Shown here: one piece after another, positions 3,904 through 61,157 of the stretch
Layout: each line of letters opens with the position of its first letter
Numbering within the stretch: the first letter of the stretch is position 1
NCBI GenBank assembly: GCA_040285855.1
Contig: JAUFOQ010000003.1
Span: 1,860,001-1,924,000, forward strand
Source: Eukaryota sp. GEM-RC1
Lineage: Eukaryota
DNA length: 64,000 nucleotides
Reading direction: 5' to 3'
The notes under the pieces: generated by a model
What the model was told of the DNA's origin: nothing
The model's input: only the letters and a program-made list of their open reading frames with translations
The model's database searches: none
Made by a program: the position numbers and the translations under genes

Positions 3904-5045
3904 TCAGAAAATGAAAGAAGTTAAGTTCTCCACATCAACACGAGAATTGTCCCTATACAACTTCGAATAAATGGAACATAAATACTTGGGAATGCTTCTA
4001 TAAAGAGCGAACATAATTCGATTAATCCATACAGCGCTATTAAACACCTTGCCATTAGAACGACGTAAAAGACTAAAATCACTGAAAAACTTTAAACCGG
4101 CTGGACCAGTATTACCAAAAATTGAAATGGCAAATGGAACAAATGAAAACTTAGAATATAGATTTTCATTAAGCTTCAGCAAAGCATCCGCATAATTAGA
4201 ACACTTTCGCTGTTCAGCCTTTTCCAGATGACCATTTGAATCATTCAATATGGAGTCTTGGTAGACTTTTGCAAACGGGTCAACTGTAGTAAAATCAACC
4301 ACAACTTGAGATGAATCCAGGAAAGGAGCAATTAAGTCACCACGCCGAGAATCAAACACGTTATTGTCACTATAATGTTTCAGAAGAGGTTCAATTTTAC
4401 AACTATAATTGTAGGATTTGAACATTTCATAAGTAACGTCACGAACAGCGTTATGTAGCACAGGACGAAATTGCAAAAATTTCTTGCAACTAACAACACG
4501 ACAAAATGTGGCTGTAGATCGGTTATCGCAAACACAGATTGAATTATTTAGCAAACCACTAGGGAATAAACCTAATCGAAGACGCATATTTTGCTTCCAA
4601 ACATCATTGTTCAAATGTAAACCAAAAGGTCTAGGTTGTTGAGTGATGAAGCTAGAACATTGTTGAATGTCACATAAAAAAAGCTGCAAAGACGGGATTA
4701 TCAATCTTAGTCACAAAAAGTCTTTTACTAAAATCCAAGTCTTCCAACCCAAGTAATGTAGCATTCTGTAACTTAACTACAGCAAGAGGTAGAAATTCAA
4801 TTGACCGATCAGGAATGGATGAAACACTTTTCGGGAAACTTTTGTTCCAAACTTCAATAGGCAAACCTTGAACTAACTCCTCCAAAGAGTTCAATAAAGC
4901 GTATGAGCCGTTTACAACTGAATCGAAAATATTTTCGAACCGAAGCTTACTCTCAAAAAGAAAGTTCTTCATACCACCAACGAAAGCACTTTTACATAAA
5001 TACTCGGCTCTTGCAAAACCAACACCACCAAATTTTTAGTTTTTA
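3904..5045 (-). mobile_element. 5'-truncated RLE-type (CRE/NeSL/R2-group-like) non-LTR retrotransposon remnant
   Basis: Translates to KFGGVGFARAEYLCKSAFVGGMKNFLFE, then a Cys/His zinc-finger-like region and RLE motifs RRGDL...VVVDFTTVDP...AEQRKCSNY...FVPFAISIFG. Homologous to the ORF at 33425-34810. Split by one frameshift near 4690. Confidence 0.8.
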
Positions 5046-5195
5046 TAAAAATTTTGAAGTCCGGTGCAGTCATTGTAATGAGTTAAAAGAACTATTATGG
5101 ACAATGTGCAAATGTTGTGTAGAGATTGATTGGACGATATATTGGTTTTTAAATCAAAAACACATAAATCATCTCACAGATAGATTTAAATCATT

Positions 5196-6692: not shown

Positions 6693-7384
6693 CAGTGTTT
6701 CGGAAATACGCGTACTTCAGCCTAAATACGCCGTATTTGAACTTCTAAGTTAAGTACGTACTTCCCATACTTATCGTACTTCTCTAACCCACCTACATTC
6801 TTATGCTCATCATCTCTGTTTCTTCATAGAATCCTGTTGAGCAATACGTTTCATCTGTTCTGAGTCGTTCATCCACCTCCATTTACACAAGTTCTCCCAA
6901 TACTCTTCTTAGTTTGGTACCCAGGCGTTCTTTTCAACCGACTTAGCACAATGTTAGTCAAGTGGAGTTTATTTCTCACGGTACACACAAAACTTTTGTA
7001 AACATCTGCTTCTATAGCACCTCTTATTGAGGGAATTAGCTAACATTGGCATCAAACCTACTGATGCACCTCCTGACGTCTGAAAGAAGAGCTTGCTTAA
7101 CCGTTGAAGAACCTTCTTAAGACATGTACTGTTCCACATCTTGATTTCTGCTGAAGACCTTGAACTGATGTGTTTTTTCAAGATGGTGATAAAGATTTTT
7201 ATGAGTTCAATAAATGTTCATACAATATTGGTGTTGTTATGACCCCCTATCTTGAGAACAAAAGGGGTCAATCAATGCAGATTAGACTCCAGAACAGGAA
7301 AGTACGTGAAGTACGTACGAGTACGTATTTACAAAGAAGTACGTACTTAACAAATTTGTACGTACACGAACTCCAAAAACACTG
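6693..7384. mobile_element. Non-autonomous hAT-type element, 692 bp
   Basis: Ends are CAGTGTTT...AAACACTG, flanked by a perfect 8-bp direct repeat AGTAATTC (6685-6692 and 7385-7392). AGTACGTACT-type subterminal motifs occur at both ends. Confidence 0.85.
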
Positions 7385-9540: not shown

Positions 9541-10290
9541 CTAATAATCAATATCCTCAAAGTCCAGATTGCCTATCTGGAAATTCTCACCTACCTTATC
9601 CTCATAATGTCTGCCAAGAGATAATAAAGCGCTAGATACAGAAGTCATCATACCTCTAAAGATAGCAAACACAGTTCGACTTTTCCAAAATCTAAGATCA
9701 AAAGTCCTAGATGTTTTTTCTTTTACAATCTTCACAAAGATTTTAATTAATGATGTTGCAGATTCACCTAAAGAACCGTACAGTGAAAATACAAAAGGGT
9801 ACAGCAAGTAATTCGAGTGTGAAGCCGAATTCAATAATTTCAACTTAGCACAATATTTTTCTTTTTTAAATTTTTCACCAATCAACAGAGGGTTTTTAGC
9901 CTTAGATTTAGCAAGTTTCTTGTTGGAACCATTACAAACGTCGATAGACATAACATCAGCAATAATGAAAGAACCATCGAAACCAGGAAATATGACATCA
10001 CCTCGGCTATTTCCAAACGACTTGTTAACATCCGTATCATCAACCAACCCAGCCAAAACTGGTTCTAAAAAGGAAACTATTCCATTAGATTTACACATAC
10101 AATATAATTGATTCCTTACTGAATCATGAACCTTACTTCTAAAAGCAATAAAACGGTTACAATTCAATAGATGTGTAGGTGTTACAGATTGCCCACATTG
10201 GCATTTCAAATTATGTGGAAGATTATCAGGCCAAATAAATGACTGTAAACGCATGTTTAATGACCAAAAGTTATCATCAAGAAAATACAA
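9541..10290 (-). mobile_element. 5'-truncated RLE-type non-LTR retrotransposon remnant
   Basis: CQCGQSVTPTHLLNC zinc finger, RHD-like KVHDSVRNQ, and RLE motifs RGDVIF...IIADVMSID...EKFKKEKY...YPFVFSLYG. Close to the copy at 33.4-35 kb. Confidence 0.85.
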
Positions 10291-10663
10291 CTCAGAGATA
10301 ATAGTTGTTGTATTTTTGAAAGATCACGACTGATATACATCATTTTACCGAAGGGTTTTCTTTTCAAAGTATATTCATCAGAAGATTATACATTCAACAA
10401 AGTTTGAAGTGTAGATATCATTCTAGTCATCAAAATAGATGTTGATAATTTCACAGTCTTCAGATTGTTTTGGTAGAGTCTGAATCCATGTAGATTTCAC
10501 CTATTCTTTAATTGATTCAGTTCTCTCAGGTGTCCACCAATTCCACTTGTCTGCTGTTGAAGCAGCCACTGAAGCAACAGAAGGTATTAGATTAGGATCC
10601 TATTAGTAGTAGTAGATTTATTTATTAGAGTTGTCTTCTTTTTTTCTTTTCAAAAAAATCTCA

Positions 10664-26741: not shown

Positions 26742-27496
26742 TAGAAGTAGTTTGAGAAGTACTACTGTTGAATTCATTTGGGGTGCATACTCCCCAAAAT
26801 CATTTTACCCCAAATACTCTTCACCCCATAACCACATCCCCAAACTGATTCACTTATACCTTCTTTGATGGATTCCATACATCGTTTGATATCCAGTGTT
26901 GAGCTTCTTTCAAGATAGAGACGTGTTTGCAGGTATTCGTTCTTAGACTTGTGAACCGTGTTCATCCATGTCAAGAATAAAATCAACGTTGTACAACCAT
27001 CTTACAACACATACATCACATTGACATCTTATCCTCCCAAGGAAAACATTAAGGTTTGCTTCATGAAGCTTCATGCATCAGAAGACACAAAGACACCAAG
27101 TTATAACTACATGTACAACATTTGTAACTACAACATTTGGTGATACAACATTTGTAATGACAATAGTGTCGTATGTGTAATGAATTGTTGACATTGATAT
27201 TTTTTTTCTTCTATGGCCAACAAGAAGAATTCAACTTCTACTGCATGCTTATCAGCAAGCTTTACAACAAGTTTCATATATGTTTTGATGGTACGGGAAC
27301 GACTTTCTTGTTCAGAAGTATTTCTGAGTTTGAAGATTGAGTAGGACATGGGAAATTCTGGTATAGACTTTATTACAGATTTCGTTTTTTAACACGTGAA
27401 TTCACACACACATGTCCATTACAGTCTGTGTGGGATTTCATTTTCCTTCCTCCTACAGTATAAATGTCGTTTGTTCTGCATCCAAACAGATGTTGT

Positions 27497-27930
27497 CCGC
27501 CATCCTGTCCTTATCTGACTCAACTTGTGACTGTTTCCATTGCACGGTTTCGGGCTCAGTTGAGTTTAGATAAGGACAGTTCTTTCCCCTCCACTGCCGT
27601 TGCTTCTCCCTCTACTGCCGTTGCTGTGATGACTGCCGTTGCTTTCCCCACTGCCGTTGCTGTGATGATGCCGCCATTCTGTCCTTATCTGACTCAACTT
27701 GTGACTGACTCCATTGCACGGTTTCGGGCTCAGTTGAGTTTAGATAAGGACAGTTCTTCTCCTCCACTGCCGTTGCTTCTCCCTCTACTGCCGTTGCTGT
27801 GATGACTGCCGTTGCTTTCCCCACTGCCGTTGCTTCGATAATGCCGCCATTCTGTCCTTATCTGACTCAACTTGTGACTGACTCCATTGCACGGTTTCGG
27901 GCTCAGTTGAGTTTAGATAAGGACAGTTCA
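27497..27930 (+). repeat. Tandem repeat (period 174/173 bp, 2.5 units), each unit carrying a 75-nt hairpin
   Basis: Hairpins at 27505-27579, 27679-27753 and 27852-27926. CTGTCCTTATCT pairs with AGATAAGGACAG (12 bp) and ACTCAACT with AGTTGAGT (8 bp). They are separated by (ACTGCCGTTGCT)-type subrepeats. Confidence 0.95.
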
Positions 27931-27963
27931 TTCTGTGTTTTATCAACACATACATTTGTTGCC

Positions 27964-30288
27964 ATGAAGTACTCGTCTCCCCTGTTTATCCCTTCCCATC
28001 CTCCGTTCCCAAAAGACCTCACCGCTGATGGTGATATTGAATCCAATCCAGGACCCGTAACTCAAGAAGCCATAAACTCAGTTTATCCTCATCAATGGGT
28101 TGATGACGAAGCGATAGTGGAGTACTGTAAAGTGATATTTCAAGAAGCAGAGTTAGACTTTGAAAGCATGTTTATCCATCCGACCACATGGCTTCAATAC
28201 ATTGTTTCACCAGATGTCCCGCTAGATCAATGGTTGTTGACGAAAATTCAGCGAAATCAAAGAACAAACTCCAAATACCTCTTTGTTCCCCTTAGTGATA
28301 CCATGACTAGAAATGCTAATTATTCCAGAGAAGGTGTCACTGGTTCTCATTGGGGTTTAGCCATTATAGACTGTTGTGAAAAGGAATGGATCTTCATTGA
28401 TCCAATGTTAACTAGCGAAGATATGAGTAAGTCTATGGTAAAATCAGCTGTAGACATATTATCCGAAGTACTTGTGCCATGGGGGTATGTTTTCCGTTAT
28501 GTGCCTGTGACTAAAACACAGTCTGCTAACGACTGTGGAGTTTATGTCATTGCGTATATTCAAAAATATGTTGAACTTTTTAAAAGACTCACGTATGTTC
28601 CGCCTCTGATGTATTTGGAAACTTATTTGGTCCAAGTGAACAATGAACTTCAAGCAGACATATTTCGTGAAAAAATTCTGGATGTATTGTCTCAACAAAG
28701 GACACTTTATCTACAACAACGTCAAACCACAGTAGCTCCTATTGTACCATCGTTACCCATTCAACCTCCTGCCGGTAAAGAACATCCAACCACTTCAATT
28801 CCTCTCACAGGTTCACGTCTTGCTAGCACTAAAACATCTACTGGTTTAAGCACTAAAAAAAGGAAAGCCAAAATTTCAGATGTTCCATCACCACGAGGTT
28901 CACCTTTAATTAAACGAAATAAATTTAGAACTACCAGCTCCCTTGTTTCAACTGGTGACACTCCAATACGAAAGACTCACCGCCGTATGTCCACATTGGA
29001 ATCATCTGAAGTACCACCATCTGAATTGCCTCCATCACCATCTGAACTACCACCATCTGAACTACCACCAAAATCACAGGCCTCCATTATGTCGTATCCA
29101 TCGCCAATTCAAGAAGAAATTCATAAAATGGAAGTAAATCTACACACTGAGCCTATAGAAGAAGAAATACAAATTCAAGACTTTCTTAAATCCCCTCTAC
29201 TTTGGAACAATCTACCAACTTTTTGTTTAATTCATGTTCAAAGTGATTTTGCCAAAAAAGAAAGAATTAATGGCAGAAATGTTCAACTTGTTCAAGAAGA
29301 TGATGATGACATTGAAACTGTTGAAGGTGAAGCTGAAGATCAATTAGAAGTTAAACGTGATTCTTCTGTTGATCCTATTGTATCAATTTCCATCCAGATC
29401 ATTGATCACAATGAGCTAAATGAAAAGCATTTATTTTCTCATGGCAATTTTGATACTTCAAACTTGGATTTGTGTACTTTACATATTTCAGATAGTGAAT
29501 CCAGTATGCTTAAAAACTTCATTTCCTTCATTACTCAACATTGTCCACGATTGTTTGTGAGTTATGACTTTCACTTAGATACATTTCCCTTTCTTGTATC
29601 ACGTTGTCAAGTCCTCAAAATCAATACAACGTTTACTTTTCCAGAATTTAAACCCTATATTCCCTTTTGGTTAAACAAATGGTGTAAGGAAACAACTTTT
29701 GGTCCGTTTTTTAGTCTCGATTTGAATGCTGTACTGAAGAATTTTTATGTCTTTACTGGTGGCCGTTTTTTGGAAAATGTTGTTCAAATTTTTCTTGAAA
29801 TGAATAATTTTTCTAAAAATGAAACTGTCAAACGCTTGGAAGATCTTAATCATGACTCTGATCCTGATGAAGTTCAATTGGTCAATAATGTCCAAAACTT
29901 GCATGGCATAATTGACAGTATTAATGTTTTAGTTCCAGACAATCCCAAAGTGAAGGTCGATAAGATTAAAAAGAAATTTGTAAGAAATTTGGAGAAAGTA
30001 AATGAACTTTGGGCCAAGGAATCGACAAAACCGCTATTGTTGATCAACTCAATTCAACAATTGCCTCTGATTGAGTACTTGTTGGCTGACCTATTGGATC
30101 CCAAAAAACAAACATTACGTTCAAAGTCACCAATGAAAGTGGTTAAGAAACGACTAGACAATGTTGTATCCAAAGTGAAGGTTAAATTTATTGAATCTCG
30201 TGTTAAGAGAGCTCATCAAGTACGAGTCCGTAGTACTCTCTTTTTAAAACATTTTTTGTTCATAATTTTCAACATTCTGGTATTTTAG
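27964..30288 (+). CDS. 2A peptide + Ulp1/SENP8-like C48 cysteine protease + degenerate family-B DNA polymerase 3'-5' exonuclease-like domain (probable 5' exon of the Fanzor gene)
   Basis: GCCATGA start at 27964, then DLTADGDIESNPGP. Protease motifs QWVDDEAI, LFVPLSD, GSHWGLAIID, FIDP and QSANDCGVYV. Then DPIVSIS...DSESSMLKNFISFITQHCPRLFVSYDFHLDTFPFLVSRCQVLKI, which resembles the PolB exo DPIIQIS...SE.ELL..F..FI...PD...GYN...FD.PYL..RA pattern. Confidence 0.8.
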   Translation: MKYSSPLFIPSHPPFPKDLTADGDIESNPGPVTQEAINSVYPHQWVDDEAIVEYCKVIFQEAELDFESMFIHPTTWLQYIVSPDVPLDQWLLTKIQRNQRTNSKYLFVPLSDTMTRNANYSREGVTGSHWGLAIIDCCEKEWIFIDPMLTSEDMSKSMVKSAVDILSEVLVPWGYVFRYVPVTKTQSANDCGVYVIAYIQKYVELFKRLTYVPPLMYLETYLVQVNNELQADIFREKILDVLSQQRTLYLQQRQTTVAPIVPSLPIQPPAGKEHPTTSIPLTGSRLASTKTSTGLSTKKRKAKISDVPSPRGSPLIKRNKFRTTSSLVSTGDTPIRKTHRRMSTLESSEVPPSELPPSPSELPPSELPPKSQASIMSYPSPIQEEIHKMEVNLHTEPIEEEIQIQDFLKSPLLWNNLPTFCLIHVQSDFAKKERINGRNVQLVQEDDDDIETVEGEAEDQLEVKRDSSVDPIVSISIQIIDHNELNEKHLFSHGNFDTSNLDLCTLHISDSESSMLKNFISFITQHCPRLFVSYDFHLDTFPFLVSRCQVLKINTTFTFPEFKPYIPFWLNKWCKETTFGPFFSLDLNAVLKNFYVFTGGRFLENVVQIFLEMNNFSKNETVKRLEDLNHDSDPDEVQLVNNVQNLHGIIDSINVLVPDNPKVKVDKIKKKFVRNLEKVNELWAKESTKPLLLINSIQQLPLIEYLLADLLDPKKQTLRSKSPMKVVKKRLDNVVSKVKVKFIESRVKRAHQVRVRSTLFLKHFLFIIFNILVF
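28015..28056 (+). other. 2A/StopGo ribosome-skipping motif DLTADGDIESNPG^P
   Basis: Exact match to the D(V/I)ExNPGP consensus, encoded by GAT ATT GAA TCC AAT CCA GGA CCC at 28033-28056, in frame with the protease ORF. Confidence 0.88.
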
Positions 30289-30299
30289 GTTACATTCAG

Positions 30300-33009
30300 A
30301 AGTTACTGCCTGCTACTGTTCCAAATGTAACTGTTAAGGAAGAAATGAATTCTGATACAGATGAGTCAACTGAAGAAGAAACAGATGTACATTCAGAGTC
30401 TATCGATGCTACTGCTCCTCCCGTTAAATTAGAAAATATTGAAGATGCGAGTGGTGAACCTGAACCTGACCTTTGGACTAAAATTCAAACTTCCAAAATT
30501 GAATTGCCAGACTGGAAGAATTTTTTACGTTGAAATCAATGGAACAAGTGTTGTCTATGATGACGATTAGGGACTACAAACTTGTAAACAATCAGAATCA
30601 TATTAGGACTGTACAAGAATCTTTAGAAAACATAATTTCTAACACAAATGATGACTCAACTCAAAATCAGTTTGCTCAACATTTCTTGATGCATTACATT
30701 CCTCGTTTAGAACTAGCTGCTCGATCTGTTGGACTTGATAGGATTGTGTTTCCCAGTAGCCTCAATTTATCTCCTATATTGCATTACATGGCTACTGAAA
30801 TTATAACGAATTACAAGACTAACATGAGTGAACACTTTCACGAATATGTTTTTCAAGTATTTAATTTGGTTACCCTGAAAAAGAAAAGACTTAACAAGCT
30901 TACTGATAAGAATCAACGACAAGAGTTGTGTACAAAGCTTAATGAAGTCAGACAGTTGATCATTAATGGGGAAATTTCAAAAATTAATTTTCAAGATGTT
31001 GAAGTGTTTCCTGATCCCAATTCTAGACTGAGTTTACTATTTTTTAACTATTTGTTTACTTTTTTTGAAGGTAAAATGGAAAAAACAATCTATTATGCTG
31101 AAAAAGTAGATCCTTTGAAATTCTTAAGTCATGCAGTGTATTTGAAACGTCTTGTTGAAGACTCTTGTACTGGTGTTACTGCCAATAATCCTTTTCCTCT
31201 GACAAAATCATTGATTCCTAATCATATCAGATTGGATACTACATGGTTTAAAAAAGTTTATGCATCAGAAATTAAAGGTAGCTTTGATGACGTTCGAAAA
31301 GATATTTGGCACTCAGTTTTGAAACCAAAGTTTCTTCCAAAGTCATTGTCTCATGACTTCAAATACAGTTCCATTTCTACAGATGGAGTTAGCTGTAGTT
31401 TAATGATGATGCGGAAAGATCTGCTTGATGGGAGAGGAAATCCTCATAAGAAGGTGAAAGCTGTTGACTACACAGCTACTGAAAGGTACATTGATTCTTT
31501 GAGTTCCACAGAAATTCAAAACTTAAATTCGAAATCAAAAAGAATTGTTGCTATTGATCCTAATCAGCATGATTTGATGTATTGTGCTTCTTTAAAATCT
31601 AAGGAGGAAAAGAAAATCGAAGGTTTCGATACATCAGCCAATCTCAGAAGAAGAAAGATTTGTCCAAAATCGTCAAAGAAAAAAGGAAGCTTGAAAAAAT
31701 TAAAAAAGGAATTGAAGGATTGGAAAGACGCACCTACTATTGACAAACCATCAACTGTCAAGTTGAAAAATCGAGACAATTGGAAAGTATTCAGATACAC
31801 TGCTGGGGAACGCAATGCCGATATTAAAAAGTCTCCATGGAAAAGAAAAAAACAAGGAAGGAAAGAAAAAGAGCTAAGAGAAAGAAGAGGAAGCTGGAGA
31901 AGAAAATAAGACGATACAATCTCCACCGTTTATCTGAATCCGAACGGTTACAACAATATTCTACTCAATTTATTCACATTCCAGATGGCAGACGCATTGA
32001 CATAAATGGGCAACAAATTTTAGATCAATGGGGCTCTAACTCGCCAGGCAGTAGATCTTGTGATTTGACTCAGTATTCTGATTTTGTTCTTGGTAAAGAA
32101 ATTACCTGTTCTTTATTACGATCACCCACTACTGATCAAAGAAATACTGAAGGAATTTACGAAGAAAAGTGGTTTAGGAGGAATCGTCTCACACAGTATT
32201 CAAGAAAGGAACGAAGTGAGAAAAACATGCTTCACAGATTTGCTCTCCAATTTGGTAACCCAGATGAAGTCGTTGTTGGGTATGGAGACTGGAACGACAC
32301 TACTTTTCGTCGAAGAAGAGGTAAAGCATCTACTGTAAAAGGTGCTTCAATTCGGAAATTATTGGGAAAATTTGGATTTAAAGTGTTCCTAGTTGATGAA
32401 TTTAAGACCAGCAAATGTTGCTCTGCATGTGTTTCCAGAAACGACGAAGGTATCTGTTCCAATCCTGAAAGGATAAAAGTCACTGATCCTCATTGGAAGA
32501 AGAAGTTACAGAAGGAAGAGAAAGAATTAAAAAAGGAAATTATGGAACACAATCACTTAGACAATATTGTGGAGCGTAACTTTGATGAAGAATGGACTGA
32601 CCAGTTGCCATTTTCGAAAGAAAGATTGAAGAACAACAAAGTCTCACCATGGGGCTTAGTTGAATGTGCTAAATGTCATGTCCTCTGGAATAGAGACTTC
32701 AACTCTGCTATCAATATTTACAATATTGTAAATGGAACCATTCAAGGTCAAGGTAGACCTGCCATCCTCGAGAGACCAAAATCTCAAACAACACCTGTCG
32801 TGGATGGCGGGAATACAGATCAGATTCCTAAGAAAAAGACTGTGAGTAAGGGTAAGGGTAAGGCAAAACGTCCTCCAACAACTGTCAGAGGTCCTAACAA
32901 GTGTCGTATATGTTCTCAACCTGGACATAACAAAACAACTTGTCCAAATAAGCCTAAGAAAGATGTACCCAAGGACTCACACGTAAACCAGAAAGATCAG
33001 GAATCTTGA
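30300..33009 (+). CDS. Fanzor1: Fanzor1 (eukaryotic TnpB-family RNA-guided endonuclease) with C-terminal CCHC zinc knuckle; two -1 frameshifts in homopolymer runs
   Basis: Fanzor1-type motifs TNYKTNMSEHF, FPLTKSLIPNHIRLDT and SISTDGVSCSL. RuvC-I IVAIDPN (Asp at 31556); VGYGDW followed by the relocated Glu in VDEFKTSKCC; CSAC...CAKC zinc finger; RuvC-III WNRDFNSAINI (Asp at 32695); CRICSQPGHNKTTC at 32902-32943. Frames join with +1 T at 30521-30526 and +1 A near 31825-31852. Confidence 0.9.
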
Positions 33010-33237
33010 ATCTATGAAGTTAGCTCGTTTTAAAAGACTTTGCGAATGAGGACTTTGTCAACTGTGGTTTATCTCATGAAAATGCTGAAGGGTTATGCCC
33101 TTATGCATTTGGAATGAAATTCACAGTACTAGAAGTTGGACAAGAAAACTTTGTATTTTCAAGTTGAGTCAGGTCGAGTACTGTCCTAGAATTCGTCTCA
33201 TTTGATTCATAAATCGAGTAAATGTTGATTTTACAGT
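33010..33237 (+). ncRNA. Putative omegaRNA (guide scaffold) of the Fanzor
   Basis: Lies directly 3' of the Fanzor stop and has nested helices: GCTCG 33023-27/CGAGT 33215-19; CGAATGAGG 33043-51/TCTCATTTG 33196-204; TTTGTCAACT 33054-63/AGTTGGACAAG 33134-44; ACTGTGG 33061-67/TCACAGT 33121-27; AAATGC/GCATTT and AAGGG/CCCTT within 33080-33110. The position matches known TnpB/Fanzor omegaRNAs. Confidence 0.7.
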
Positions 33238-33317
33238 GCTGTTATATTAGTAATACGTCTTAACTGTGGTCTAGATCCACAATACATGTACTGTACTAAG
33301 TACGTTATAATAATATT

Positions 33318-35032
33318 TATATGGATGACATTTCTTTTATTGCTCCTATGTCAACTCTTCGTATTATTGCGAATCAGGCTGCTGATTTGTACGATGCTAT
33401 TGGACTTCAATTAAATGTGCAAAAATGTTTTTGATTGCCAAGGTACCTGTAACTTTAATTGTCAATTCTTTAGAGGTTCCCTTTGTGAACTATTTATCTT
33501 CAAGCTTTAGATTTCTAGGTTGTTATCTTGGTTCACATGACAACATTGTTAAAGATCTGAATGTATATTTGGATTCAATGCGAAAAGAATTAGATCAAAT
33601 TAAGGAATTACAATTGGAAAAACATCTCAAATTCTTTATGCTAAAAATTTGTTATTCAGGAAAAGTTACCCATCTGCTTCGATCTCTCCCCCCTGTACTT
33701 ACCTATAACTTCTGTAGAAGCTTTAACAAAATTCGTACTGACTTTCTTGCATTTTTGTTATCAGTGGATCCTGCTGCTTTGAACAATCACATCTTCCCAG
33801 ATCCTCATCTTGGTGTTATTGGTTTCACTTCGTCTAAATGGTGGACCAAATCTGCTTTCATTGGTGGTGGTAAGAATTTTGTCTTTGAGTTCTGTAGACG
33901 GTACCCAAGTCAAGAAAATCTTCTTGTTTCGACAAGTAGTTTTTTCTTGGTAAATTTGAGATCAGAATTGTCACTAATTTCACCTGACCTCTGGCAAACT
34001 TGTTTTCCAGCAGATATTTGTGAAATACCAGAACGATGTGTCACCTCGTTAAAATTTGCTCTTAAGAAACTCCAAAAAGACCTTTTAAAACATTTTGAAT
34101 GTCTGCATTTTAAAATTCGACTTGGCTCGGCCAAAGAAAAAAATCCAGCTTTCGCAAATTTTTTAATCGATTTAAAGGACAGTTCTTCAGTTGCTTTGAT
34201 TAACCAAATTCCTCAGATCTATGGTTTGTTGTTGAATGATCATCAATGGACTACAACATTCAGACTTCGATGTTTCTTGTGGCCCTCTAATTTACCCAAT
34301 GATCTTCAATGCAAATGTGGTAAATTAGTTACTTTTTCTCACCTTTTGAGTTGCAATCGTTTCATTACTTATAGAACTTGTATTCATGATGCTGTTAGAG
34401 ATCAAATTCATGCAATGTGTAAGTCCTACAAAATCGAATCTTTCGTTGAGCCACTGTTGAGATCACTGGAAATCAATAATTCAAAAAATAGTGATTCTGA
34501 TAAGACTTTTGGTAAACGAAGAGCTGATGTTATAGTTCCATCAGTTAATGATGAACTAACCGTTGTTGATGTGATTACTGTGGATGTTTGCAAAAAAAGT
34601 GCTTTCAAGGATGCTAAAAATGAAGTTTCTCCACTGAATTCTTCAGAACAGTACAAGAGAAACAAATATGATGAACCACTGACTGCTCTCAAACTTATTG
34701 GACATGTTGAGTACAAATTATGTCCTTTTGCGATTTCAATTTATGGTCGACTTGGTAGAGATGCTCTTTGTTTTCTCTCTGATTTTGAGAAAGTGGTCAA
34801 AAAAGAATGAACAAGAAATTTGATTTCAAATTTTGGTTGAATCGTATTGTTTTTACAATATTTAAAACAATTCCCATCATGATTTCAAAATCTCTATTAG
34901 CTCTCAGTGTTTTTTATGAAGAAAAAGCTGATGTGAGTTTTAATGGCAATGATTGTTGCTTTAATGATATTGAATTCTAGTATTTGTGTTTATTTTAATG
35001 TTTTTAATAAAGATAAACATCACCAAAAAAAA
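33318..35032 (+). mobile_element. 5'-truncated RLE-type non-LTR retrotransposon (RT C-terminus, zinc finger, RLE, 3' UTR)
   Basis: Begins at the RT motif YMDDISFIA (33318), then GLQLNVQKC and FRFLGCYLG, CKCGKLVTFSHLLSC, and RRADVIV...VVDVITVD...EQYKRNKY. The reading frame ends at ~34980, followed by AATAAA and a short A run. Confidence 0.88.
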
Positions 35033-35071
35033 TAATATTTATTTACCGAAAAGATGTTGGCTAACACACTA

Positions 35072-36602
35072 CACCGCTGACCTTAATTAATGACACTTTC
35101 CAAATTAATGTCACTTCACAATCAATGTCAGTGACAATCATTTAGGTTTGAGCAATTCTGAAAATAAGAGACATTAGTTACCAAGATCTTTCAGTGTTTG
35201 ATTTCTTCAACGCTAAGTCTCCATTTTTCTTAATGGCACTGAAAGTCAAGAAGAGATTATATATAACAACGATAATTCTACTAATACCTCAATAACACGG
35301 TTTTCGCCTGGTTGATATGCAGTTTTGATTTTACCAATTCGAATGAATCGTATCGCCTTACGATGTATATCCAGGTTAGATAATGGAACTACAGTAGACA
35401 GGAAGAACATTCAATTGTGTCATGAGATCGGAAACTATAAGGAGTTCTTTGATGACTGGTGTTTTCTTTATAAGTTGCTCGTCGAAAACAGAGTTGATTC
35501 AACAAATTCAGTGAAAATATTTTGGAACCTTTTTGAATTAATTGATTAAGGTCAGCGGCAGGCTTCACTAAAGTAGTCTAAAATTCAAAATTAAAGTAAA
35601 GTACTCTACTTTACTTTAAGCTCTCCTTTCCTTCAGCTAAAAAGTAACTTTAAGGTCAATAAAGTTTGACCTGATCTCAATCCTCTGACTCAGCGATGTA
35701 GTAGCTTCCAATATCTGTAAACTAAAGATTATGAGGCTTTAAATCAAACAAAATCTTCCTGACTTTTGAATTACTTCCAATGAAGATGATTCACTGATTT
35801 ATGGGATTCTGACGGTAATTTGATATTTGAAAAGCAACGTTAAGACGAAAACACGAAAACACACAAGATTATCTTATGACTAAATTTTCCAGTAGCAAAA
35901 TAATGGATGATCAGTTTTCGGCTTTGGATAATGCTGAAGATAACAAATGTCTTCGTAATTGTGCTTATATTTCTAAACTGAATTCACAAAGACAGAATGC
36001 TTTGGTGTTTCACTCATTCGGTCTTTCAATTTATGGGAATTTGGGTTCTGCAGCTCAAACCTGTTTGTCATCTTTTAATCAATTGTGTAGTGAATTTAGC
36101 AAGAAGTTTAACATTAATTTTTGGAGGGATCGTCTCGTTTTTTCTATATTTCGTTCAATGTTTCAGTATTTTGACAGAATTTTGAAGAAAGTCTTTGGCG
36201 TTCAAGACCAGGTCTTGGAATAGTATTGTTAATTTTGTTTACGTCTTTAGATTTTATGTATCTTTAAGAGATAAAAGATTTTGTTCCTTATAACTGATCT
36301 GTAAAACTCTACAGTTTATCCAGTATACCCATTTACTTTAAAATCATTTGGATCAGCTCATAAATCACGGTTAAAATGATCCGACTCAGAAGTTAAGACT
36401 AAAAAATAGATTGAGCTGAACGAACTTCTAATCCCAAACAATATCAACTTGTAGTTGTACTGTATTGCAGCATCAGCATAAACGAAAATTCAACTCTGAT
36501 GCTGAAGAAATCAAACACTGAAAGATGCTCCAAATTAATGTCACTGACGTTAACTCCGAAGTGAAAATACTTTGGAAGTGACGTGAATTAAGGTCAGGGG
36601 TG
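35072..36602. mobile_element. Non-autonomous Tc1/mariner/pogo-type composite element
   Basis: Imperfect ~28-bp TIRs, CACCGCTGACCTTAATTAATGACACTT versus the reverse complement of AAGTGACGTGAATTAAGGTCAGGGGTG, each flanked by TA. A third TIR copy is at ~35545-35558. Confidence 0.6.
35876..36223 (+). mobile_element. Short 3' fragment of an RLE-type non-LTR retrotransposon, nested in the Tc1-like element
   Basis: LDNAEDNK...FHSFGLSIYGNLGSAAQ...FWRDRLVFSIFR matches the C-termini of the other copies. Confidence 0.7.
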
Positions 36603-36716
36603 TAGACGACTCGGAATGTACAGGAAGTGATGTTTAACCTTGATTGTCAAAAGATATTTATACACAAAAATTAGACTTTTTAAAAAATCAAAGTCATACA
36701 GAAGAACGACACGTCA

Positions 36717-46527: not shown

Positions 46528-47480
46528 TTGTTAATTTCTGATGTTATTAGTTTGGTTTGTAAAGCATATGTTGTTCTAAAAGGTTTATTTCTCATGAATT
46601 TTCTACAACAAATTGAAAATCAAGACAAAGGCTGAATCCATATTCAATTCTTCTATGGCAAAAAGAATCTAAAAGTTATTCTCCACTTTTGCTACCCGAT
46701 TAGATATGTAAAATTGTTTCTGATACAATAAAAATACAGTGCTGTAAGAACTATTCAAACTGAAGTACACATAGCAGCTAGAATCAGTGGTAACAACAAT
46801 TGATTTTGATCAAAAAAGAACTCTGGAAATATCTTTGGTAACTTCGACTCAGAGGAAGAGGTTCAGTCCATTTGTATGTTCTATTTTTAGTCCACACTTA
46901 TTTCATCAATTATGGCTAGTTTATGGTCCTCTCAAAAAATAATTGGTTGTACTATTCATTCAATATTATTTGATAGATTGAAGCCGATTGTTCATTTTTG
47001 TCAATAACTACAATAGACGTATTGTTAACCATGACACGACACGTTCATGGCTCACTAAAAACGACAATGTACTGTGTTAGAAACGTCGCAGGGTTATTTT
47101 TTTGACAAATTTCACGTTCCATTGTTGAAACGTTAACAGTCTATATGAAAGTATCAAACCATATAATTTGTCTCACCAGAACATCCTCCAAGATCACAAC
47201 AATCAAATAATTTTGCATCAGCTAAACAAAAATTAATAAAAATTGACCCGAAACAACCAGGAACAACAGTAAAATTAGAAAGCAACTTTTCGTTAATGTG
47301 ATAAGTTGAATAGGGAATTCTTCTTCACATTCGAATTGATCGTTGTACCCTTTTGTATCTTCACTGTACGGATCTTTAGGTGCATCTGCAACACCATTAC
47401 TTAAAATAATTGTGAAGATTGTAAAGAAAAACATCTAAGACTTGTGATCTTAGATGTTGCTAAAATCTATTTGTGATATG

Positions 47481-48671: not shown

Positions 48672-48743
48672 TCGGTCATAGTATAGTGGTGAGTATCCCC
48701 GCCTGTCACGCGGGAGGCCGGGGTTCGATTCCCCGTGACCGAG
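48672..48743 (+). tRNA. tRNA-Asp(GTC)
   Basis: Acceptor TCGGTCA/TGACCGA, anticodon arm CCCGC-CTGTCAC-GCGGG, T-loop GGTTCGATTCC, downstream T run. Confidence 0.97.
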
Positions 48744-53109: not shown

Positions 53110-54457
53110 TTTGGAGGCAACTACTTTTCGGAATTAGGAAGTTCGTTTGACAATTTGTTTTAATAGTCTTTATTTATTTGTTGTTTTCTTGTTGTGTGTT
53201 TTTCTACATAAATCCGCTTTATTAATCTTCATCATTAACTGTATTAAATAGTCAAATAGGAGTAGTATCATATGGATCATCAGCCTTGTATTAAACGCTG
53301 TTAAGCTTATCACCCAATTCAAGAACAAATGTAAGTTAAAGTGTGCACATTCGATTGACATGAACTTTGGCAAATCGCATCAACACACCTACACAATGCT
53401 TCAAAGAGGGAATATTCCAACCTTCGTCTGCAATAACTTTCATTCAAATTCTTTCCTTACTGTTTATACAATTTGCTGAAAGTAGTGAGACATTTGTGTG
53501 ATAAATGATTGTTGTTGACGAGAACTCATCTTGAAAAATTATTCACCGTAGCGATGTAAATTTTTTACTTTCAGTAGTTTCAAGAACTGAATAATCTTCG
53601 TCTAAAAATGTGTTTAGAGAAGTTGAGTTACAAGGATCAACCGTTATGCAGTCCATAATTACTACACCAATCGGTTTAAATAGTGTGGACCAGACTAATT
53701 CTAGTCCATACTATTTCTTTATCCAGACTATTTACACTGATTGGTGTAGTATTTCATGAGAGGACAACCAAGGACCAATCAAATTTCATCTGCACTTATC
53801 TCACATAATTGAGTCAGAAAGTATTTAACACTGGTTCGATTTTCCCAGGAAAACCATTGCTCTTAAACAATTCCAAAGATTGATCATGTATACTGTTGTG
53901 AATGATTGATCTTAAACAAATACAAGTGTACATTTACTGTACATTTATTACATGGGGGTATATGTGTCCTTGACCCTTATTACAATTGACCATATTTGTC
54001 TATAATTAGTCTCATCAGCAAATTAGCAGTGAAACTAGTGTTGAAGCAACCAACTGTTATGCTCTAAAGACCAAATTTATGATTATAGATGAAGTGGTGT
54101 GAAAGCGAATAGAGTAGCTGAATTCTCTGTGAAAATTGGTGAACAACGTTACAATATGGTTCTGTGAAAAACCAACCAATATTTTGAATCCATCTACAGT
54201 AGCATAAGATATTGTAGTATTTGTTTTCAGTCTCCCATCGAACTTCCACAACCGTCCACAGTATTGGTATCGTACAATTACTTGATGGTGTCACAAGAAG
54301 TTTGATTTTTTGACCACATGGTTAGATGACTTTTTTTTAAATAAAACGGATTTATGTGCGGAGAAAAATACACAACAAGAAAACAACAAATAAATTGACA
54401 CTATTAAAACAAATTATCAACCGAACTACCTAATTCCGAAAAGTAGTTGCCTCCAAA
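53110..54457. repeat. ~115-bp imperfect inverted repeat pair (53110-53223 / 54340-54457)
   Basis: TTTGGAGGCAACTACTTTTCGGAATTAGG... is mirrored by ...CCTAATTCCGAAAAGTAGTTGCCTCCAAA, with patchy similarity extending outward (ACTGGAAGA/TCTTCCAGT). No clear TSD. Confidence 0.85.
53330..53940 (-). mobile_element. Degraded RLE-type retrotransposon remnant interrupted by a ~90-bp MITE (53660-53751)
   Basis: Minus strand reads RSIIHNSIHDQ...FKSNGFPGKIEPVL...IGPWLSSHE | IMDCITVDPCN. The break coincides with the inverted repeat ACTACACCAATCGGTTTAAATAGT / ACTATTTACACTGATTGGTGTAGT. Confidence 0.7.
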
Positions 54458-55020: not shown

Positions 55021-55093
55021 CTCACCCGATGAGAATCGAACTCACAACCTTTCGATTAACAGTCGAGCGCACTACCGATTGTGCTACAGGTGA
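55021..55093 (-). tRNA. tRNA-Asn(GTT)
   Basis: Reverse complement TCACCTGTAGCACAATCGGTAGTGCGCTCGACTGTTAATCGAAAGGTTGTGAGTTCGATTCTCATCGGGTGAG folds as a cloverleaf with anticodon GTT. Confidence 0.95.
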
Positions 55094-59855: not shown

Positions 59856-59927
59856 GCGACTGTAGTATAGCGGTTAGTACACATCGTTGTGGCCGATGAA
59901 ATCCTGGTTCGATTCCAGGCAGTCGCA
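59856..59927 (+). tRNA. tRNA-His(GTG)
   Basis: Acceptor GCGACTG/CAGTCGC, anticodon arm CATCG-TTGTGGC-CGATG, T arm CCTGG-TTCGATT-CCAGG, downstream T run. Confidence 0.96.
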
Positions 59928-60026: not shown

Positions 60027-61157
60027 CATACTCCGTGGCTTAAATCGAGTCAATCATTAATAGATTTTACTACAGTTGATGTTTGTAACAAATCTTGTGT
60101 TAGTAGGATATTAGATTCTTCTTTTAATCCGTTAACAGCTGCTGAAAAGCTCAAACACTCCAAGTATAACTCTCAAGTAGAAGAATTAAATAGAAACTCA
60201 TATTCCAAATTTGAGTTTCATCCTTTTGCTGTTTCTCTTTTTGGATCTATTAGTCCTGCTGGTGATCAATTTTTCAAGGATTTCGAAGAATTGTGTAAAG
60301 AAAAGAAGCGTAAGTTTAGAATGGCTGAATGGAAAAACCGTATAGTGTTTTTCATATATCGGAATATCGATATGTCTTTCTATTTCTCTAGATTAATTGA
60401 GAAATGAGAGAGAGATGTTTATTCGGCACCCAATAAGGTAACCTTTCTACAAACTATGAAATTGTAAAAACAAACAAATAATACTAAGATTAAATCCAAA
60501 CGACTTCATCACCACCCGGTAAAAGATTACGTTTATCTACATGAACCTTCACACCAAACTTGTACAATTTCTCAATTAATCTAGAGAAATAGAAAGGCAT
60601 ATTCCGATATATGGAAAACACTATACGGTTTTTCCATTCAGCCATTCTAAACTTACGCTTCTTTTCTTTACACAATTCTTCGAAATCCTTGAAAAATTGA
60701 TCACCAGCAGGACTAATAGATCCAAAAAGAGAAACAGCAAAAGGTTGAAACACAAATTTGGAATATGAGTTTCTATTTAATTCTTCTACTTGAGAGTCAT
60801 ACTTGGTGTGTTTGAGCTTTTCAGCTGCTGTTAATGGATTAAAAGAAGAATCTAATATCCTACTAACACAAGATTTGTTACATACATCTACTGTAGTAAA
60901 ATCCATTAATGCTTGACTCGATTTAAGCCACGGAGTATGTAGATCCCCTCGTTTTTGATCAGTAAATTCATTTTCTGAAAGATGATTCAAAACTGAAATT
61001 GAGAAATTGTACAAGTTTGGTAAGAAGGTTAATGTTGAAAAACGTAATCTTTTACCGGGTGGTGATGAAGTCGTTTGGATTTAATCTTAGTATTATTTGT
61101 TTGTTTTTACAATTTCATAGTTTTGTAGGAATGTTACCTTATTGGGTACCGAATAAA
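60027..61157. mobile_element. Two near-identical 5'-truncated RLE retrotransposon copies, one (60406-60996, minus) inserted into the other (plus)
   Basis: The plus copy 60027-60405 resumes at 61008. The insert is flanked by the 11-bp duplication AATTGAGAAAT (60395-60405 and 60997-61007). The insert ORF has RGDLHTPW...MDFTTVDV...AEKLKHTKY. Confidence 0.88.

Follow-up and report, generated by a model that had tools for sequence, protein, structure and literature searches.

In the accessible parts of the literature, the omegaRNAs of Fanzor1 systems lie between or across the stop codon and the right end of the element (PMC10432273, PMC10530073). The SpuFz1 RNA combines a 75-nt scaffold with 14–15 nt of flank, and the GtFz1 omegaRNA overlaps 17 codons of its open reading frame (PMC10432273). 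Solved Fanzor1 RNAs are 75, 90 and 150 nt long, with a first stem of 7 bp (PMC11423790); Fanzor1 RNAs are described as lacking a pseudoknot, ending in a stem and including the target duplication (PMC10711439). In one Fanzor2 case conservation extends up to 200 nt past the open reading frame (PMC10530073), and Fanzor1 has also been found in Helitron2 elements with terminal hairpins (PMC3627910).

The window analyzed here is a 64,000-nt stretch of a contig from Eukaryota sp. GEM-RC1. Within it, the interval 33010–33237 (+ strand) opens one base past the TGA (33007–33009) of a Fanzor1 gene and is bounded on its right side by a separate insertion (33309–33321), which gives it the placement of a Fanzor1 omegaRNA, 3′ of the stop or overlapping it. 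A first-pass annotation had proposed an omegaRNA of ~200 nt here, and its premise that such elements carry this RNA at the 3′ end is borne out by the accessible text of PMC10432273. The placement is reasonable; the structural arguments offered for it are mostly not. An omegaRNA in or across 33010–33237 is likely (we put the probability, by position, at roughly 0.7) because Fanzor1 RNAs lie at the 3′ end and the local fold reaches z −4 to −5.

Like SpuFz1, GtFz1 and PpFz1, the locus offers a structured 3′ RNA candidate, and its first stem-loop of 7 bp weakly resembles their SL1. Unlike in those systems, the window's Fanzor is part of a polyprotein and does not stand alone, and the candidate RNA is long: ~200 nt as first proposed and up to 224 nt in our analysis, versus 75–150 nt for the solved omegaRNAs (PMC11423790). 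The 30-nt terminal inverted repeat of Spu-1 has no equivalent in the window element. As in the Mucor elements MCi-2 and MCi-5 (PMC3627910), no transposase is seen, there are no clear terminal repeats and the 5′ regions are exchangeable among subfamilies. MCi-2 has target duplications of 11–12 bp, whereas none was found for the window element, and the accessible text of PMC3627910 describes no 2A, Ulp1 or exonuclease in MCi-2 or MCi-5.

The Fanzor1 gene and its polyprotein

The gene that carries the interval at its 3′ end (27464–33009) encodes, in order, leader repeats, a 2A-like motif, an Ulp1 domain, a PolB-type exonuclease, Fanzor1 and a zinc knuckle, a polyprotein of ~1,680 aa:

27497–27933 (+): three tandem leader repeats of ~173 nt, each a long hairpin (repeat and fold analysis)
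28033–28056 (+): predicted 2A-like ribosome-skip motif, DIESNPGP (read from the motif)
28255–28575 (+): Ulp1-family (C48) cysteine protease domain (Pfam PF02902, E 3e-5, above cut-off)
29338–29631 (+): PolB-type 3′–5′ exonuclease domain (Pfam PF03104, E 1e-7)
30133–33009 (+): Fanzor1 coding region, matching the solved SpuFz1, GtFz1 and PpFz1; 5′ limit approximate
32758–32811 (+): strong hairpin in the coding tail, right after the last RuvC motif (fold z)
32902–32943 (+): C-terminal CCHC zinc knuckle (E 0.015, below cut-off; motif seen)

The gene ahead of the interval is a Fanzor1, predicted from its sequence to be an RNA-guided DNA-cutting enzyme. Its two largest frames match the solved structures of SpuFz1, GtFz1 and PpFz1 (E 2e-13 to 2e-4), and Pfam PF07282 matches above cut-off in the Fanzor1 frames. 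The RuvC triad is intact (D at 31556 in IDPN, E at 32398 in VDEFKTSKCC, D at 32695 in WNRD), the RuvC glutamate stands six residues ahead of the zinc finger, and the C4 finger (CCSAC/CAKC) and NRD motif are present. The N-terminal REC/WED region matches SpuFz1 (phmmer, E 2e-13) and GtFz1 (E 2e-5), with ISTDG aligned; a TDG motif is an N-terminal feature of the Fanzor1 type (PMC10711439, in part). The first-pass annotation was thus right to see a Fanzor gene before the interval, an intact member of a multi-copy family as far as its RuvC triad goes. A perfect 18-nt palindrome lies within the coding tail at 32715–32732.

Three frame breaks occur in T/A runs of the Fanzor1 coding region (~30250, ~30525 and ~31850). 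Because three related proteins (P0224, P0031 and P0032) read through them, these are assembly slips or recent decay; in P0031 and P0032 the RuvC region is a single frame that matches the window's two frames joined. An intron at 30234–30288 is ruled out by P0224, in which this stretch is coding sequence.

A protein search gave 21 matches among 437 candidates. The four closest proteins (79–96% identity, source label Eukaryota sp. GEM-RC1) stand for clusters of 26, 14, 1 and 1 proteins, with 15 of the 26 listed, and the Fanzor1 family is, by its protein sequences, multi-copy. Exact-pattern searches for DNA copies found none among contigs from metagenomes, prokaryote genomes and viruses, and protein-based scans gave 0 loci in one case and 1 distant locus in the other. 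A family of 40 copies in two subfamilies would permit covariation analysis and guide mapping once its DNA is aligned.

The leader (27440–27960) folds with z −5.8, a value inflated by repetition; other copies have the same or different leader repeat units ahead of the same 2A-like motif, and the subfamilies differ in this. The leader repeats are no known ribozyme, since an Rfam search of them at E up to 5 gave nothing credible. The 2A-like stretch also matches a picornavirus-like polyprotein with repeated NPGP motifs, and the Ulp1 domain has its His motif (28348) and Cys motif (QSANDC, 28519). In one relative of 1,473 aa (P0222), a single chain combines the 2A-like motif with the exonuclease and Fanzor1, and its exonuclease motifs appear intact; the acidic motifs are presumably present there and altered in the window copy. 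Judged from sequence, the PolB-type exonuclease of this family is likely inactive.

P0224 spans the junction between the first frame of the window and the Fanzor frame, and a search of cluster representatives gave 35 matches. In the ESM Atlas, residues 60–760 of P0222 matched only PolB exonuclease clusters, all below 0.9. Against a fixed linkage, none of the 10 upstream-module tags listed by a search with short fragments adjoins a listed Fanzor tag (the nearest is 6 away). Pfam reported no transposase domain for the polyprotein frames.

We found no Fanzor1 behind a 3′–5′ exonuclease, Ulp1 and a 2A-like site among the papers listed by our searches of the Fanzor literature, although the supplements of those papers may list related elements, and no literature on Fanzor in metamonads. 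The accessible portions of PMC6338049 and PMC11316075 describe no polyprotein Fanzor element, and the main text of PMC11316075 does not mention Fanzor. The polyprotein carrier is more novel than the RNA, which any Fanzor1 element should have. A natural exonuclease–Fanzor fusion would bear on the processing of cut ends in homing and on editor design.

The non-LTR retrotransposons L1Tc and Ingi reportedly carry 2A-like peptides, and those of the NeSL/Utopia type carry Ulp1 proteases. The window element resembles such retrotransposons in its 5′ tandem repeats followed by a 2A-like motif and then an Ulp1 domain; unlike them, it has no internal reverse transcriptase (RT), the downstream RT being a separate insertion. 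A speculative and very improbable reading sees here a Fanzor that behaves like a retrotransposon: it would have no transposase, a leader of the non-LTR type (exchangeable tandem repeats, 2A skip site and Ulp1 protease) and a polyprotein releasing an exonuclease–Fanzor fusion, and the RT-endonuclease elements that abound in the genome would copy it by way of its RNA. If so, the 3′ RNA would be both guide scaffold and mobilization signal, and might pair with the leader through 33160–33172. These 13 nt are antisense to each leader repeat; the match is only a lead, because 15 of 1,000 shuffles reach it against the leader and 95 of 1,000 against the whole element.

Folding of the interval and of viral counterparts

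To judge folding, we compared energies with those of dinucleotide shuffles of the sequence. As a whole, 33010–33237 folds with z −1.97 (8 of 200 shuffles equally good) and its minus strand with z −1.79 (8/200). A sliding scan located the signal in 33000–33200. The first-pass annotation had made a fold better than such shuffles a test of the candidate, and this holds for the 5′ part, with z −4.9 for 33058–33130 (0 of 500 shuffles as good) and z −4.0 for 33020–33139 (0/400), and fails for 33130–33237, which folds like a shuffle (z +0.08, 201/400). Three parts can be told apart:

33024–33050 (+): stem-loop 1 of the candidate omegaRNA, 7 bp + 4 bp; pair probability 0.46–0.98 by context
33051–33137 (+): long interrupted hairpin, core 33061–33127; z −4.6 to −4.9
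33138–33233 (+): 3′ part of the candidate scaffold, with several competing closing helices

The core hairpin has helix probabilities of 0.9–1.0 in all folds seen, and according to the folding model the long hairpin 33051–33137 is the sole robust structure of the interval. Pairing by G-U had been read as a sign of structure at the RNA level. However, the core holds 4 G-U among 31 pairs, mostly Watson-Crick, and its z is equal on the minus strand and −4.1 on both strands with DNA parameters, so its G-U content is no proof of RNA-level structure. In absolute terms the core is more stable on the plus strand (−26.4 vs −22.5 kcal/mol). Across the window, 13 of 399 tiles (~3%) reach z −3 or lower in a noisy scan of 20 shuffles each, in which the tile at 33020 scores only −2.1.

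The complementary segments first reported are where they were said to be (CGAATGAGG at 33043–51 with TCTCATTTG at 33196–204; ACAGTACT at 33123–30 with AGTACTGT at 33177–84), yet their number carries no weight as evidence. Compared with the means of 300 dinucleotide shuffles, the 228 nt hold 29 vs 29.8 stems of at least 7 bp, 15 vs 12.1 of at least 8 bp and 6 vs 5.1 of at least 9 bp, and a perfect 8-bp Watson-Crick pair is present in 39% of shuffles. The idea of nested helices survives to the extent that a fully nested fold, closed by 33015–24/33224–33, is the minimum-energy structure of 33010–33237 at 25 °C; the pair count behind it is at chance level. This closing helix has a probability of 0.6–0.7 when 33010–33237 is folded and is lost upon adding 13 bases. 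The long helix of the same annotation ranges from 0.0 to 0.86 by context (0.18 for 33010–33237, 0.02 for 33010–33300, and 0.82 only with 33040–33210). The alternative pairing 33123–30/33177–84, suggested as a switch or pseudoknot, competes with the core stem and has a probability of 0.02 or less in every fold seen, in a folding model that itself excludes pseudoknots; a pseudoknot would also be out of line with Fanzor1 RNAs, which lack one (PMC10711439, in part).

A SECIS reading of the hairpin was rejected, as its spacing misfits the SECIS pattern. In Rfam at E up to 5, the interval gave three chance-level matches, far under gathering scores. Known Fanzor1 RNAs differ widely from one another, which makes a missing similarity to Rfam or to a model a weak test.

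The nearest relatives found outside the family are giant-virus Fanzor1 proteins (P0006–P0021; 27–32% identity over the RuvC half). A scan with an alignment of the distant matches yielded viral loci, of which we used the best 80 of 369 (L002–L081). In the last 170 nt of each of these elements we observed a sharply bounded, covarying omegaRNA candidate of ~120 nt with variable flanks. An end motif lies 41–72 nt past the stop in 76 of the 79 viral loci with a located last RuvC motif, and 209–228 nt past WNRD, a spacing that corresponds to 32895–32914 in the window. In an alignment of 36 of the 54 distinct viral ends, a covarying 8-bp stem-loop lies inside the open reading frame and a 7-bp stem is closed by the terminal bases, with 6 of 15 pairs compensatory; the viral RNA begins in the open reading frame, overlapping its last ~20 codons. 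The viral elements thus show the expected anatomy, a sharply defined right end with a closing terminal stem. Unlike them, the window lacks the viral end motif in 33010–33308, and a covariance model built from 36 viral relatives gave no plus-strand match near the interval (its 26 matches across the window reach E 0.72 at best).

The right end of the element and the readings of the interval

Three features bear on where the element and its scaffold end:

26978–26994 (+): candidate left end, a weak TA-bounded inverted repeat that pairs with 33218–33233
33218–33233 (+): candidate right end, in weak inverted repeat with 26978–26994
33234–33248 (+): candidate 15-nt guide, assuming an element end at 33233 (after accessible parts of PMC10432273 and PMC10711439)

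The inverted repeat has a 10-nt exact match starting with TA and 15 of 17 positions matching with one gap. A repeat of this length is TA-anchored in 18 of 500 shuffles and occurs unanchored in about half, which is chance level, and three further copies of its CAAC(A/G)TT motif lie at 27116–27146. Its end at 33233 falls within the scaffold end first proposed (33220–33237). In a scan for closing stems, 33233 ranks 29th–55th of 176 ends, with 33235–33240 at or near the top; ends at 33137, 33170–33187, 33201–33213, 33235–33240, 33261 and 33295 each have a possible closing stem in at least one folding context, and ends near 33137, 33263 and 33295 fold as well as 33233. Folding alone, as modeled, cannot choose the scaffold end. 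Position 33233 is our best single guess, a tentative one that is more likely wrong than right; an end in 33260–33300 is a doubtful second choice, and one in 33135–33175 is unlikely.

No clear terminal inverted repeat or target duplication of the Fanzor element was found, the best direct repeat being 9 nt and at chance level. We rejected TACATGTAC at 27108 and 33283 as a 9-bp target duplication, given that matches of at least 9 nt arise in 23 of 30 shuffles, and likewise a terminal domain at 33232–33295 with the topology of the viral RNA, whose probability is 0.95 in one context and 0.03–0.08 in others; domains of this kind also form in 15 of 300 shuffles and in 16 of 615 real tiles. Seven copies of the palindrome TACATGTA are present in the window (24910, 27108, 33283, 37200, 42599, 59939 and 61400). 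Upstream of the leader, a short GC hairpin with CCCCAAA-like repeats (26776–26845) and a three-copy 15-nt array (27108–27165) are possible end structures.

If an omegaRNA lies in or across 33010–33237, the stem-loop 33024–33050 and the hairpin 33051–33137 are predicted by the folding model to be the firm part of its scaffold. Transcription of the element would continue past its right end into the flanking DNA, and trimming would leave an RNA with ~15 nt of flank as its last bases; the Fanzor1 domain could then bind this RNA and cut the empty allele beside the left-flank motif. Repair that uses the occupied allele as template would restore the element or spread it, as in homing. Several points stand against an omegaRNA here: the 3′ half is shuffle-like, the hairpin reaches the same significance with DNA parameters or on the opposite strand, ~3% of window tiles reach z −3, the viral model has no plus-strand match in the interval, the viral spacing past WNRD would place the end at 32895–32914, 224 nt exceeds 75–150 nt, and this copy carries three frame breaks. 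In one alternative, the RNA may start in the coding tail, at ~32960 or with the hairpin 32758–32811, leaving the interval as its middle only; it would then be closed by 32960–67/33254–61 and end near the TTAA at 33260–33263. Such a start recalls the viral relatives, whose RNAs overlap the last ~20 codons, and GtFz1 with its 17 (PMC10432273, in part). The closing helix, encoded by KDVPKDS, a stretch that 19 of 21 tails across both subfamilies retain, has a probability of 0.8–0.9 when the fold begins at 32955, and the fold of 32750–32820 reaches z −5.2 on the plus strand (0 of 500 shuffles as good; −2.5 on the minus strand). However, the helix vanishes if the fold begins at 32750, folds from 32955 reach only z −1.0 to −2.2, and an RNA of 300 nt would be twice the largest solved one (PMC11423790, in part); we consider a coding-tail start improbable.

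An equally improbable view takes the hairpin as a DNA or single-strand end signal, such as a rolling-circle terminator or subterminal palindrome, or as a 3′-UTR structure of the mRNA, with any omegaRNA shorter and further 3′. That z is the same for either strand and with DNA parameters points this way, as do the lack of a clear terminal inverted repeat and the occurrence of Fanzor1 in Helitron2 elements with terminal hairpins (PMC3627910, in part). Purine-rich internal loops and G-U pairs, however, favor the plus strand, by the energies given above. Moreover, a canonical Helitron end has CTAG before T, and the three CTAG in the region precede A. It is less probable still, indeed very unlikely, that the interval is mostly host flank with one chance hairpin and that the element ends at or just past the stop: pair counts are at chance and ~3% of window tiles fold as well, but 50 nt past the stop of a Fanzor gene is where a strong hairpin would be expected, and the viral relatives keep 41–72 nt past theirs.

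The neighboring retrotransposon and other features of the window

The insertion that bounds the interval is flanked by a target-site duplication:

33309–33320 (no strand): left copy of the 12-nt target-site duplication, AATAATATTTAT, within the window only at 33309 and 35031
33321–35030 (+): 5′-truncated non-LTR retrotransposon, a separate insertion, with RT from the YMDD motif and then a restriction-like endonuclease

Its 3′ end is the A run at 35030, before the right copy of the duplication (35031–35042). Because this duplication begins at 33309, the interval is not a retrotransposon leader, and we rejected 33010–33308, which lies outside 33309–33320/35031–35042, as a 5′ module of the RT element. 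We likewise rejected the view that the RT element belongs permanently to the Fanzor element: among the tags listed, no Fanzor tag (of 31) comes within 17 of an RT tag (of 29). The retrotransposon is a separate multi-copy family. Of its 27 listed members, 9 share an MDDI start and none retains the upstream RT motif, a pattern that hints at an amplified truncated RT form.

Further RT-endonuclease fragments lie at 60027–61157, 3904–5053, 9541–10299 and 47294–47475, one pair forming an inverted duplication. An element with imperfect terminal inverted repeats of ~75 nt, bounded by TA, occupies 35070–36603 and carries a fragment resembling the endonuclease tail. Elsewhere in the window are a MITE-like TACACC-ended palindrome (53660–53750, hairpin z −6.7), a GTAC-rich stem (7300–7380, hairpin z −5.9) and three tRNA genes:

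48672–48743: tRNA-Asp gene
55021–55093: tRNA-Asn gene
59856–59927: tRNA-His gene
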